From a virus (Duplodnaviria; Heunggongvirae; Uroviricota; Caudoviricetes), in IMG/VR virus record IMGVR_UViG_2684623059_000005: DNA of 46,081 bases; one strand, given 5' to 3'. Below, in pieces: positions 42,201-46,081 of this stretch; the stretch's first letter is position 1, and each line of letters opens with the position of its first letter. A program made the position numbers.

Positions 42201-45200
42201 TTTTGTGGAGAAACCAACCGACCTTGCAGGGTCGATATGATGAGGAGCAGCAAAATGGCTAGCGAACGCAGTACTGATGTGCAGGCATTTATCGGAGAGC
42301 TGGACGGCAGCGTATTTGAAACCAAAATCGGCGCAGTTCTCAGTGAAGTCGCTTCCGGTGTGATGAACACGAAAACCAAAGGTAAGGTCTCGCTCAACCT
42401 GGAAATCGAACCGTTTGATGAGAACCGTGTGAAAATAAAACACAAACTCTCATATGTTCGCCCGACTAACCGCGGGAAAATTTCCGAAGAAGACACCACC
42501 GAAACGCCGATGTATGTCAATCGCGGTGGTCGCCTGACTATTCTGCAGGAAGACCAGGGACAATTACTGACTCTTGCCGGTGAACCTGACGGAAAACTCC
42601 GCGCAGCAGGTCATTAATATCGTTCTTAATTAACTGATTATTTATCTCATCACTGAATATCTTTATATAGTGAGGACTTATTATGTCTCAGAACTTAGAC
42701 GCAACCGCAATTAATCAAATCCATGCCCTTATTTCTGCTCAGGGTGTTAATGAAATTATCAGTAAGATTGGTGCCGATGCTGTGGCATTGCCTGAGAATT
42801 TCCGCATTCATGATCTGGAAAAATTTAATTTAAATCGCTTCCGTTTCCGTGGTGCGCTTTCCACTGCCAGCATCGATGACTTTACCCGTTATTCTAAAGA
42901 TCTTGCAGATGAAGGCACCCGCTGCTTTATCGATGCCGATAATATGCGAGCCGTCAGTGTGCTTAACCTGGGTACTATTGATGAACCAGGTCACGCAGAT
43001 AACACCGCCACCCTCAAACTGAAAAAGACAGCACCGTTTTCTGCTCTGTTGTCTGTTAATGGCGAGCGTAACTCCCAGAAGTCACTGGCAGAATGGATTG
43101 AAGACTGGGCCGACTACCTTGTGGGCTTTGATGCTAATGGTGACACCATTCAGGCAACCAAAGCGGCTGCGGCAGTCCGTAAAATCACAATTGAAGCAAA
43201 CCAGACCGCTGATTTTGAAGACAATGACTTCAGCGGCAAACGCTCTCTGATGGAGTCTGTCGAAGCGAAAACCAAAGACATTATGCCAGTGGCATTTGAA
43301 TTTAAATGCGTTCCGTTTGAAGGCCTGAAAGAACGTCCGTTTAAATTACGCCTCAGCATTATCACTGGCGATCGTCCTGTACTGGTTCTGCGCATTATTC
43401 AGCTGGAAGCGGTGCAGGAAGAAATGGCTAACGAATTTCGTGATCTGCTTGTTGAGAAATTTAAAGACAGCAAAGTCGAAACCTTTATTGGTACTTTCAC
43501 CGCCTGATTTCATTACTGCAAATGCCCCTGCGGGGGCATTTATGGAGACATAATTTACTCAATAATCGCCGGATGGTGAGGGCTTCTTTTTACCAGAATT
43601 CAGCGCGGTGCAGCGCATATACGTGGAGAACAAAATGTCATTTATTAAAACTTTTTCCGGGAAGCATTTTTATTATGACAAGATAAATAAAGACGACATC
43701 GTTATTAACGATATCGCGGTTTCCCTTTCAAATATCTGTCGCTTTGCAGGACATCTTTCACACTTCTACAGCGTCGCCCAACATGCGGTGCTTTGCAGCC
43801 AGCTGGTACCGCAGGAATTTGCTTTTGAAGCGTTAATGCATGATGCAACAGAAGCATATTGCCAGGACATCCCCGCACCACTGAAACGCCTTCTTCCTGA
43901 CTATAAACGGATGGAAGAAAAAATAGACGCCGTAATCCGTGAGAAATACGGGTTACCTCCTGTTATGAGCACGCCAGTGAAATATGCCGATCTCATTATG
44001 CTGGCAACCGAACGCCGCGATCTCGGGCTTGATGATGGTTCTTTCTGGCCTGTACTGGAAGGTATCCCGGCGACAGAGATGTTCAAAGTTATTCCACTGT
44101 CACCAGGCCATGCCTACGGGATGTTTATGGAACGTTTTAACGAGTTATCGGGGTTACGCAAATGCGCATGAATGTTTTCGAAATGGAAGGGTTTCTTCGC
44201 GGGAAATGTGTACCGCGAGATCTGAAAGTGAACGAAACAAACGCTGAGTACCTGGTGCGTAAATTTGCTGAAGCTGAGGCCAAGTGCGCGGCGCTGGCTG
44301 AACGTATCGAAGAGTTACAGACAAAACCTACGCCAGATTCGTTTGGCATCATCGGTGAAAATATTCGAACACAGGATAATCGAATAACGTCAGACCCTAT
44401 GTTTTGTGTGTATCAAAAGCGCGAAATTGTTGTTGATGCTGATTATGACTATGACCGGATTGTCTGGGTTGATGAAGATGGCAATGAAGCCAATAAACTC
44501 CAAAGTCGTCGTCTCGAACTACTTCATGAAAACTTTCGGGAACCACCAGAAAAATGGCGGCGCGTTGCTGTGAAAGATATTGATGAATTCGTTACCTGCT
44601 GTTTCACCGAACAGGGTTGTAAAGACTACCTGGCAGCCAACGGTCACAATCTTCGCTTGCCATTTATATATGTAAAAAGCGGTTTCAGGAACGCTGAATA
44701 TATCAGCATAAGAAACTGGCTTGCTGGCATTCGCATCAAAGGAGAGTGAGATGATCGGACAAATATCAATTGTTCGACCGGGAGCATGTGACGATCGCGA
44801 GATACGAATGATTATTCGTCTGGCAATGGGGAAAACAATAACTGCTCTCATTACTCCTGAAAATCTCGCATTAGCGTTAACAGGAAAGTCAGACCTACCA
44901 GTAGACATAAAGCTGCGAAATGTTGAGATTAAGGTGAAATAGCATGAATTCTATTACCAAAGAACGTATCGAATTATTCATTAAAAATCCGCTTGAAAAC
45001 GGGCTTACCCGTGGTGAACAAATGGAACTTGCACGGATTACGCTGGCATCGCTGGAAGCAGAACCGGTGGCATGGCTGCATTCAGACAATGGCTTAGGTA
45101 TTCCGGCAATAACACGGAGTAAAAACGTTGCTGACAGTTGGTTATCAAAGGGTTGGTATGTTCAGCCGCTATATATAGCTCAGCCAGTACACGTGCCGGA

Positions 45201-46081
45201 GGAAATGAATCTGGCACGCGCACAGAAAGAGGTGGGTTTTAATCGATATATCATGGCTGGGTATGTTGATGGCTGGAACGCCTGCCGCGCTGCCATGCTT
45301 CAGAGCCAAGGTGGAGGCAACCAATGAGCAATTATCTGTACTGGTCTGGCTTAGTGGCTAACATCGCGCTCATGTTGTTCGTGGCTCTTTGCATCTGGGT
45401 TTGGTTTATCTGGCCTTTTGTAGAAGCCATGAGCATAACTCGGTGCTTTATTTGCGCATCAAAGACTTCTGGATGCAAACCAACTGTAAGAGCAATTATC
45501 AGAACTTTAAAATACTGGTATCTGGATTTGCTTTTCGGCAGGGGCTGGACGCGAATTAGTAACCGCCAGTTTGAATGGGAAGGCGTCGGTAACTGGCGAA
45601 TTCACAGCAGCAAAGAAACGCAGGAGGTGAAGTAATGAATAACTTAATGATCGACCTTGAGACGATGGGGAAAAATAAGGATGCACCGATCGTTTCCATT
45701 GGCGCGGTGTTCTTCACTCCAGAAACCGGAGACATCGGACAAGAATTCTATACGGTTGTCAGCCTGGACAGTGCTATGGAGCAAGGGGCCACACCTGACG
45801 GCGATACCATCCTGTGGTGGTTGAAACAAAGCCCTGAAGCACGAGCTGCAATCTGTATTGATGATACTTTGTCGATCAGCGATGCACTCTCTGAACTGAG
45901 CCATTTCATTAATCGGCACGCAGGCAATACGAAATATTTAAAAGTTTGGGGTAACGGGGCCACCTTCGACAACGTAATTTTACGCGGAGCTTATGAACGA
46001 GCAGGACAAATCTGCCCATGGGCGTACTGGAATGATCACGATGTACGCACGATCGTTACGCTTGGTGTCAACGACGGATGA

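Follow-up and report, generated by a model that had tools for sequence, protein, structure and literature searches.

The five tightly packed genes at the end of the sequence analysed here, a 46,081-nucleotide stretch from IMG/VR record IMGVR_UViG_2684623059_000005 (the window), very probably belong to an ordinary mosaic accessory region towards the distal end of an early-left (pL-type) operon in a lambdoid prophage, which sits in dusA of Escherichia albertii. The original prediction had placed five consecutive plus-strand ORFs at 44162-46081, and reading the sequence directly we found all of them at these positions, with sizes of 195, 63, 127, 103 and 148 aa:

44162..44749, plus strand: ORF1, 195 aa, a YfdS-type N-terminal leader (aa 1-47) with an Ea22 variant V3 (P27-type) C-terminal domain (aa 41-195)
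44751..44942, plus strand: ORF2, 63 aa, ATG start, small phage protein phrog_1222 (E 1.4e-39)
44944..45327, plus strand: ORF3, 127 aa, N-terminal module of DUF551-type proteins, with the DUF551 domain missing
45324..45635, plus strand: ORF4, 103 aa, small basic (pI 9.5) single-pass membrane protein, phrog_2531, predicted transmembrane helix at aa 11-29
45635..46081, plus strand: ORF5, 148 aa, codons 1-144 of a DexA/Rv2179c-like DEDDh 3'-5' exonuclease, followed by four IS100 codons and TGA

The overlaps predicted for this row are present, namely ATGA between ORF3 and ORF4 (4 nt) and TAATG between ORF4 and ORF5 (1 nt), whereas the spacers between the remaining genes are 1 nt and not 2 nt as had been proposed, because the ORF1/ORF2 and ORF2/ORF3 junctions read TGA-g-ATG and TAG-c-ATG. 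Shine-Dalgarno-like purine runs are located 6-17 nt 5' of ORF2, ORF3, ORF4 and ORF5 (AGGAG, AAGGTG, GGTGGAGG and AGGAGGTG, respectively), and the ribosome-binding site of ORF1 consists of a weak Shine-Dalgarno-like run only. Judged by homology, all five are genuine coding genes, because protein-level homologues of each are conserved in many other phages and prophages.

The row lies within a larger arrangement that extends on both sides. Positions outside the window are given in the coordinates of locus L003 (window position = L003 position + 35634):

1526-2563, minus strand: Dus domain (dusA)
2652-3749, plus strand: integrase (Phage_integrase), adjoining the 5' end of dusA
40679-41305: cI-like repressor of the early-left arm, preceding the promoter-like site
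41359..41387 (L003 5725-5753), plus strand: promoter-like site TTGCCA-17-TAGATT, from a consensus scan
42255..42617, plus strand: yfdP-like gene, 120 aa, 98.3% identical to YfdP of CPS-53 in K-12, PF27127 in the existing annotation
42683..43507, plus strand: yfdQ-like gene, DUF2303, 274 aa, PF10065 (E 2.3e-92), 98.9% identical to K-12 YfdQ
43635..44171, plus strand: yfdR-like HD-domain 5'-deoxynucleotidase gene, 178 aa, phrog_318 (E 7e-110), 97.8% identical to K-12 YfdR and called '5'-deoxynucleotidase' by PGAP in relatives
L003 12569-12841: PrtN/RdfN-type gene (PF11112 protein), beyond the window and 3' of IS100 and the exonuclease remainder

The proposed location in an early-left operon of a lambdoid phage agrees with this gene order, in which the cI-like repressor, with a P22_Cro-like gene opposite to it, is followed by the promoter-like site and then by an unbroken row of genes exclusively on the plus strand. 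Situated just 3' of the cI-like gene, the site at 41359..41387 is a candidate pL-type promoter for the entire row. The strongest terminator-like hairpin (7 bp, five GC pairs, symmetric on both strands) directly follows the prtN-like gene, with weak 5-bp stem matches as the only hits inside the gene row; promoter and terminator are both consensus matches only. Moreover, the prophage has the characteristics of a dusA-specific integrative element, in that its integrase adjoins the 5' side of dusA and a PrtN/RdfN-family gene is located at its other end. PrtN-family proteins serve as recombination directionality factor (RdfN) in this class (PMC8409611), and 60 of 94 dusA islands contain prtN homologues (PMC4482086).

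This setting bears on the proposal that the five genes constitute a dedicated joint module for anti-defence, host takeover or superinfection exclusion, a reading that we consider highly improbable. The tight translational packing, the early-left location and the lack of a known function for four of the products would all suit such a module, but packing of the same kind reaches the upstream yfdR-like gene. Position 44162, taken as the operon start in the original prediction, is no natural boundary because the stop of the yfdR-like gene overlaps the start of ORF1 by 10 nt. The supposed discrete unit of five likewise dissolves, as coupling runs up through yfdR, yfdQ and yfdP and down to the PrtN/RdfN-type gene and the terminator, and the suspicion that the row might continue past the window was correct, with further genes present downstream in the source contig (AP014857.1, E. 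albertii). Packing of this kind represents the normal economy of phage early operons and does not indicate a five-subunit machine; in general, closely abutting stop and start codons in such operons are no evidence for a multi-protein system.

The individual products also argue for a mosaic origin. On the basis of its alignments, ORF1 is a chimera of a YfdS leader and the C-terminal domain of Ea22-V3. It has the conserved N-terminal leader of K-12 YfdS (MRMNVFEMEGFLRGKCVPRDLKVNETNAEYLVRKF), its first 35 aa being identical and about 47 aa near-identical overall before the two proteins diverge, so that beyond about aa 50 no similarity to K-12 YfdS was found and the DUF551-type C-terminal part is absent (no DUF551 match). 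From aa 41 to 195, ORF1 is 96% identical to aa 143-297 of Ead/Ea22-like proteins of 297 aa (149/155 for P0113). Its tblastn matches include phages P27, PA8, PA28, 2851, 1717 and HK022, all placed in V3 (PMC10834534, Table 1), with 97% identity of the C-terminal domain to P27, PA8 and PA28, and ORF1 qualifies as carrying the variant-specific Ea22 C-terminal domain of the V3 (P27) type. This domain is complete in ORF1, has a confident predicted fold (pLDDT 94.6) and is very widespread and strongly conserved, while having neither a Pfam model nor a solved relative. A Pfam search of ORF1 gave nothing at E<=0.01, and the Ead_Ea22 N-terminal/coiled-coil domain PF13935, which the 297-aa relative P0113 carries at aa 2-134, is absent. 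Ea22 is a pro-lysogenic and mosaic protein (PMC10834534, PMC7093339), its N-terminal/coiled-coil part is thought to mediate tetramer formation, and the C-terminal domain of lambda Ea22 does not by itself reproduce the pro-lysogenic effect (PMC10834534).

ORF2 has homologues in 176 phage records, among them Stx phages, the P22-like SE1, Kapi1 and the virulent Dhillonvirus (63-68% identity), and has no match in Pfam or the PDB. ORF3 is 100% identical over aa 1-119 to aa 1-119 of a 213-aa DUF551 protein (P0352), from which it splits after 'CRAAML'. It has 3297 homologues, and among the matches listed most are DUF551 proteins of ~200 aa. The Pfam search of ORF3 returned no match, DUF551 (PF04448) included, a domain that is located at aa 191-254 in the related protein P0033. 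A direct comparison of ORF3 with YfdS revealed no similarity. ORF1 and ORF3 are hence recombinant pieces of larger mosaic proteins, which counts against a dedicated module. Overall, searches of ORF1-ORF4 against Pfam, NCBIfam and PADLOC gave no match, and PDB sequence and profile searches with ORF1-ORF4 and with alignments A2 and A4 yielded nothing significant.

Comparison with related elements reveals a constant frame around a variable slot. In the IMG/VR set, comprising 26 loci that carry ORF4 and are mostly close relatives, so that co-occurrence counts are not independent, 23 loci have the frame (yfdP-yfdQ-)yfdR ... ORF4-exo-prtN in the same order, 21 of them with the full yfdP-yfdQ-yfdR trio. 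In contrast, the ORF1 C-terminal domain, ORF2 and ORF3 are all present, and with them all five genes, at four of the 26 loci, and the interval between the YfdS-type leader and ORF4 varies from 745 to about 2560 nt. In most relatives, other cassettes stand in place of ORF1-ORF3 while ORF4 and the exonuclease remain, which again speaks against a joint module. The original prediction had named absent linkage in related phages, or matches of all five products to known lambdoid early genes, as evidence against itself, and to a large extent this evidence is present. Colinearity of the whole block was seen in 4 of 5426 E. coli genomes (parts of it in 3599) and in none of 271 matching phage records, where the best coverage is <=59%, and ORF1 is an Ea22/YfdS-type early protein. 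What can still be said in favour of a module is that four E. coli genomes and four IMG/VR loci share the identical block of five genes, and from its recurrence in these few elements the combination, once assembled, is at least stable.

Besides its place in the frame, ORF4 corresponds to the 103-aa membrane protein that had been proposed, with one strong hydrophobic helix (aa 11-29, Kyte-Doolittle 19-residue mean 2.5). Homologues at 56-73% identity keep the full length including M1, and an alternative short start was dropped because the 62-68-aa proteins in the ORF4 90% cluster share no sequence relation with it. No Pfam match and no PDB sequence match were obtained for ORF4, and its predicted model (pLDDT 74.9, moderate) had no PDB fold match at E<1. 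Judged by their matches, ORF2 and ORF4 are uncharacterised phage families with many other contexts, among them nin regions and virulent siphoviruses, and the occurrence of their homologues alone in unrelated genomic settings is a further argument against a five-gene module.

ORF5 ends at an insertion sequence that begins inside the window and continues beyond its edge:

46061..46065: left copy of the 5-bp target-site duplication CTTGG (L003 10427-10431 and 12386-12390 both read CTTGG)
46066..46081: first 16 nt of IS100 (TGTCAACGACGGATGA), the rest of the element lying beyond the window
L003 10432-12385: IS100 (IS21 family), 1954 bp, with istA (340 aa) and istB (259 aa) on the minus strand

All hallmarks of an IS100/IS21 element are present, i.e., istA and istB, imperfect terminal inverted repeats beginning with TGT, a short duplication and near-identity to the reference (99.9% over 1954 nt to annotated IS100 copies in E. 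coli); compared with these it is an ordinary copy with nothing notable. The exact exonuclease/IS junction was searched for in E. coli genomes, and the insertion was not found in this set because the alignments of all 602 well-covering records (597 genomes) end at base 84 of 100.

The proposed DEDD exonuclease homology of ORF5 is well founded. It matches the Rv2179c-like family PF16473 with E 5.4e-60 (202.5 bits, cutoff 27) over profile positions 1-142 of 177 only, and is homologous to the T4 DexA structures 8KEL (E 6.5e-9) and 8KEN. With the catalytic residues of DexA as given in PMC12153337, motif I (D-x-E) comprises D7 and E9 within 'IDLET' (aa 7-10 read DLET), and 'GATFDNVIL', which aligns with 'GMSFDFPIL' of DexA, contains the motif II Asp. 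Motif III (H-x4-D), however, is absent from the polypeptide encoded in the window, which ends TLG+VNDG before the stop; it is found ('HNALADA') in a 58-aa fragment at L003 12356-12532, 2 kb on and past IS100. The 148-aa protein of the original prediction does not exist as a natural product, because its last four codons and the stop (46066-46081) are IS100 sequence, and the source record itself names the gene 'putative exonuclease, N-terminal part'. In terms of sequence, ORF5 is a homologous pseudogene and not a functional family member: the exonuclease is dead here because the insertion after codon 144 removed the H-x4-D motif. By comparison, T4 DexA has 227 aa and the intact exonuclease, represented by an allele in E. 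coli UTAK-1 that carries H-x4-D ('HNALADA'), has 190 aa, whereas the copy in the window breaks off after residue 144, without motif III. In silico removal of IS100 and one copy of the duplication restores a 190-aa ORF with 185/190 residues identical to the intact allele, indicating that the lesion is recent and single.

Consequently, the proposed membrane protein plus nuclease can have no combined activity in this prophage, because the exonuclease is an IS100-disrupted pseudogene without motif III. In PADLOC-DB v2, no model matched ORF1-ORF4 or yfdPQR, and ORF5 gave a marginal match to a CRISPR-associated DEDDh model (E 1.1e-3 over 43 residues). The lack of PADLOC matches apart from this marginal one and the broken nuclease both count against the five-gene module.

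A narrower alternative is that only ORF4 and the 190-aa DexA-like exonuclease form a functional pair, with ORF1-ORF3 as passengers, and that the pair attacks incoming phage DNA in an HREX-like manner or host DNA during lytic growth, ORF4 serving as regulator or anchor. We regard this as unlikely, although a functional pairing is conceivable given the very well conserved 1-nt-overlap adjacency (TAATG), which was seen at 23 of the 26 loci, in phage vB_EcoM-720R4 and in E. coli UTAK-1; in this prophage lineage, the DexA-like exonuclease nearly always has the same small membrane protein gene just before it. The homology to T4 DexA likewise fits, and HREX/EcD is a published precedent for defence by members of this exonuclease family: EcD, an E. 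coli homologue of DexA, is reported to protect against T4 through degradation of 5hmC DNA (PMC12153337). In one pairwise HMMER alignment to 8KEL, DexA W152, the Trp for 5hmC recognition, is matched by W132, but the residue aligned with D90 is Asp (D83), whereas absence of D90 is linked to the dimer-only, defence-type form, EcD having A78 there (PMC12153337; EcD was compared by this description only). Furthermore, homologues of ORF4 with 56-66% identity are located in nin regions, 3' of a DnaB-like helicase and with no exonuclease nearby, and a further 461 phage records contain relatives with 29-37% identity, which neighbour NinH-like genes where annotation is given. As the 23 loci are closely related, their adjacency may be merely inherited, and within the window the exonuclease is inactivated by IS100.

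Decay offers another explanation, in which the region is cryptic-prophage junk without any functional gene, and ORF1 and ORF3 are what is left of truncated pseudogenes. The IS disruption of ORF5, the lack of the Ead_Ea22 coiled-coil domain in ORF1 and of DUF551 in ORF3, and the 'incomplete' flags that PGAP assigns to the equivalents of ORF1 and ORF3 in E. coli UTAK-1 point in this direction. We nevertheless find it quite unlikely, as the exact sequences of ORF2, ORF3 and ORF4 are present on 497 to >1000 contigs and close variants of ORF1 on hundreds, with open frames throughout; good ribosome-binding sites are retained by ORF2-ORF5; the C-terminal domain of ORF1 is complete with a confidently predicted fold; and the intact exonuclease frame recovered upon IS removal implies a single recent lesion.

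The mosaic accessory region that we favour has close counterparts in known elements. In the cryptic prophage CPS-53/KplE1 of K-12, yfdP-yfdQ-yfdR-yfdS-yfdT-(ypdJ)-torI have the order and strand seen here, YfdP, YfdQ and YfdR are 98-99% identical, yfdR also overlaps the next gene by 10 nt, the N-terminal ~47 aa of YfdS are common to ORF1, and both rows end with a small excision factor gene. The two differ in that ORF1 has the Ea22-V3 C-terminal domain where YfdS has its own C-terminal part, and in their integration sites, argW for CPS-53 and dusA for the present element. ORF4 is unrelated to YfdT (E 5.8), the exonuclease shows no similarity to YpdJ, and neither does the PrtN-type factor to TorI. 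From the replication-inhibiting yfdQRST cluster, which in multicopy inhibits initiation at oriC and whose YfdR binds DnaA (PMC4776307), the present row contains yfdQ and yfdR at 98-99% identity and yfdS as N-terminal leader only, with yfdT absent. The second counterpart is the exo-xis region of lambda and Stx phages, a pL-driven, earliest-expressed and highly mosaic accessory region located before the excision gene (PMC8614690, PMC10834534). With the V3 Ea22 of P27, ORF1 has the C-terminal domain in common (96%) but not the PF13935 part. In lambda itself, a tblastn search of all window products against the int-to-N region (27700-35700, with orf60a, orf63, orf61, ea22 and ea8.5) gave no match at E<=0.01.

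The row is very probably the functional counterpart of both the lambda exo-xis accessory region and the yfdPQRST-torI segment of CPS-53. The constant frame consists of yfdP/yfdQ/yfdR on one side and ORF4, the 190-aa DexA-like exonuclease, the PrtN/RdfN-type gene and the terminator on the other, with the slot between yfdR and ORF4 taking up recombined cassettes of small genes, here ORF1, ORF2 and ORF3. The apparent crossover points are shared leaders and linkers, namely the YfdS/Ea22 N-terminus with its coiled coil and the 'CRAAML' motif, which makes this locus a clean example of the lambdoid early-left layout of frame and variable slot with crossovers inside shared protein leaders. The genes would be co-transcribed from the pL-like promoter early on infection or induction, and in analogy to the binding of DnaA by YfdR and the pro-lysogenic role of Ea22 their products probably act singly, modulating host physiology and the lysis-lysogeny decision; an intact exonuclease would degrade DNA in the 3'-5' direction. 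In the present prophage, IS100 separates the promoter from the excision factor gene by an additional 1.95 kb that is transcribed in the opposite direction, and by this polar effect prophage excision is probably impaired. The case further illustrates that a window edge can conceal an IS insertion that makes the one recognisable gene a pseudogene.

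The element is a lambdoid prophage integrated in dusA, as follows from the dusA and integrase genes at the left end of the window, and the five-gene row, here ORF1 to ORF5, lies in its early-left arm. All five plus-strand ORFs were confirmed from the window sequence at the following positions, together with the landmarks of the prophage:

1526-2563, minus strand: dusA, left end of the window
2652-3749, plus strand: tyrosine integrase gene, left end of the window
40679-41305: cI-like repressor gene, early-left arm
41359-41387: candidate promoter-like site after the cI-like repressor gene, followed by an unbroken plus-strand row
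44162-44749, plus strand: ORF1, 195 aa
44751-44942, plus strand: ORF2, 63 aa
44944-45327, plus strand: ORF3, 127 aa
45324-45635, plus strand: ORF4, 103 aa
45635-46081, plus strand: ORF5, 148 aa

The yfdP-, yfdQ- and yfdR-like genes share 98-99% identity with their counterparts in the cryptic prophage CPS-53 of E. coli K-12. Between an HTH_17 gene and yfdP, the start of a 100-aa ORF is overlapped by a full-model-length, sub-threshold Rfam match to the sRNA STnc100 (RF02076; 41917-42119, plus strand; score 36.3 bits, gathering cut-off 47, E 2.7e-5).

Successive junctions from ORF1 to ORF5 read TGA-g-ATG, TAG-c-ATG, ATGA and TAATG, with a good Shine-Dalgarno-like run 5' of each of ORF2 to ORF5; the overlaps described in the original prediction thus stand, while the supposed 2-nt spacers are 1 nt long. 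The left edge of the block is arbitrary, because ORF1 shares its first 10 nt with the end of the upstream yfdR-like gene (43635-44171), a coupling of the same kind. A 129-aa antisense ORF (44519-44908, minus strand) covers the ORF1/ORF2 junction.

Co-occurrence did not bear out the idea, suggested by this tight coupling, that the five genes form one unit. ORF2, ORF3 and the C-terminal domain of ORF1 are all present in only 4 of the 26 IMG/VR loci bearing ORF4, and the whole block is colinear in four of 5426 E. coli genomes (parts of it in 3599) and in zero of the 271 phage records that matched, making a true five-gene module very improbable. The frame [yfdP-yfdQ-]yfdR ... ORF4-exonuclease-prtN recurs in 23 of the 26 loci, but its stretch from yfdR to ORF4 differs greatly in length, ORF4 lying 745 to about 2560 nt away from the YfdS-type leader; the architecture is a constant frame around a recombination slot. 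Crossovers, as the chimeric joints within ORF1 and ORF3 reveal, apparently fall inside shared leaders and linkers.

The first ~47 aa of ORF1 are almost identical to K-12 YfdS, with divergence afterwards, and aa 41-195 share 96% identity with the last 155 aa of Ead/Ea22-like proteins 276-298 aa long; the Ead_Ea22 coiled-coil domain was absent in a Pfam search. An intermediate 235-aa protein, P0078, combines the ORF1 leader with a longer coiled coil. By tblastn the C-terminal domain occurs in P27, PA8, PA28, 2851, 1717 and HK022, the first five being Ea22 variant V3 genomes (PMC10834534); uncharacterised yet very widespread, this domain remains of interest. ORF2 (phrog_1222) is present in several types of phage, 176 records in all. 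ORF3 and a 213-aa DUF551 protein have the same N-terminal 119 aa and part after 'CRAAML', and a Pfam search of ORF3 found no DUF551 domain. Many public records call this exact protein (44944-45327) and close relatives 'valyl-tRNA synthetase', which appears to be a propagated misannotation since no sequence feature backs the label.

ORF5 begins MNNLMIDLET and matches the Rv2179c-like 3'-5' exonuclease family (PF16473, E 5.4e-60), to which T4 DexA (8KEL) is homologous, only at profile positions 1-142 of 177. The predicted exonuclease identity holds at the level of the family, but the gene itself is split by IS100. The 148-aa product, by exact look-up, occurs in one contig only, AP014857.1, where it is named 'putative exonuclease, N-terminal part [Escherichia albertii]'. 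In L003, the segment of this source contig running past the window (L003 1-10447 equals window 35635-46081 exactly), the sequence departs after window base 46065 from related E. coli prophages, whose exonuclease has 190 aa, and a 1954-bp IS100 (IS21 family) follows, 99.9% identical to annotated copies, with minus-strand istA and istB genes, imperfect terminal inverted repeats and a 5-bp CTTGG duplication. Beyond it lies a 58-aa remainder with the H-x4-D motif 'HNALADA'; when IS100 and one of the two CTTGG copies are taken out in silico, a 190-aa ORF reappears that matches the intact allele at 185 of 190 residues. The junction is absent from all 5426 complete E. coli genomes examined, and the exonuclease is inactive in this genome. 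Pure decay of the region is unlikely.

As anticipated, the row continues past the window, where the exonuclease remainder is followed by a PrtN-family gene (PF11112), a putative hairpin terminator, an opposite-strand YafO-toxin-like pair and then zur, yjbJ, dinF and lexA of the host. PrtN-family proteins occur in 60/94 dusA-specific islands (PMC4482086) and serve such elements as recombination directionality factor (RdfN; PMC8409611); these elements carry integrase and excision factor at opposite prophage ends (PMC4482086, PMC8409611); so does this prophage, as ~42 kb separate dusA/integrase (1526-3749) on the left from the PrtN/RdfN-type gene on the right. The oppositely oriented IS100 parts the excision factor gene from its candidate promoter, and excision is therefore probably impaired.

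The block is best explained as the distal stretch of an early operon of pL type whose accessory genes would act individually, comparable to the lambda exo-xis region and to CPS-53 yfdPQRST-torI. In multicopy, yfdQRST is inhibitory to initiation at oriC, and YfdR is a DnaA-binding protein (PMC4776307); Ea22 favours lysogeny, the lambda C-terminal domain alone being insufficient (PMC10834534, PMC7093339); DexA-type nucleases digest DNA in the 3'-5' direction, and a homologue from E. coli reportedly defends against T4 (PMC12153337). All genes belong to catalogued families, the architecture is of a known kind and the exonuclease split is already annotated in the source record.

The conserved ORF4-exonuclease adjacency remains of interest. 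ORF4 is, as predicted, a membrane protein (phrog_2531), small and basic, with one strong transmembrane helix (aa 11-29) and conservation starting at the first Met; it forms only nine clusters at 90% identity, has full-length relatives at 29-37% identity in a further 461 phage records, and gave no match in a fold search. Its distant homologues lie in nin regions, 3' of a DnaB-like helicase gene and without an exonuclease nearby, leaving a functional ORF4-exonuclease pair a slim prospect. In the distant phage contig L031, a 102-aa ORF (5912-6220, plus strand) ~600 nt 3' of an ORF4 homologue contains 'RRAKNGDEEYMAWDVRLAW', which by eye resembles the K-12 YfdT segment 'RRRAKNGDNEYMAWDMTLGW', suggesting that ORF4-like and YfdT-like genes can adjoin in nin regions. 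The 90%-identity cluster of ORF4 also lists members unrelated to it in sequence (P0048, P0051; 62-68 aa, 'MKNRKAKILLVRR...'), which may be an artefact of how the protein collection is clustered or looked up.

The YafO-family toxin gene (PF13957) and its 179-aa partner, which has no Pfam match, lie between the prtN-like gene and zur (L003 12868-13858, minus strand). E. coli UTAK-1 carries a Panacea-domain protein and a hypothetical protein there, and the position appears to be another slot for variable cargo.
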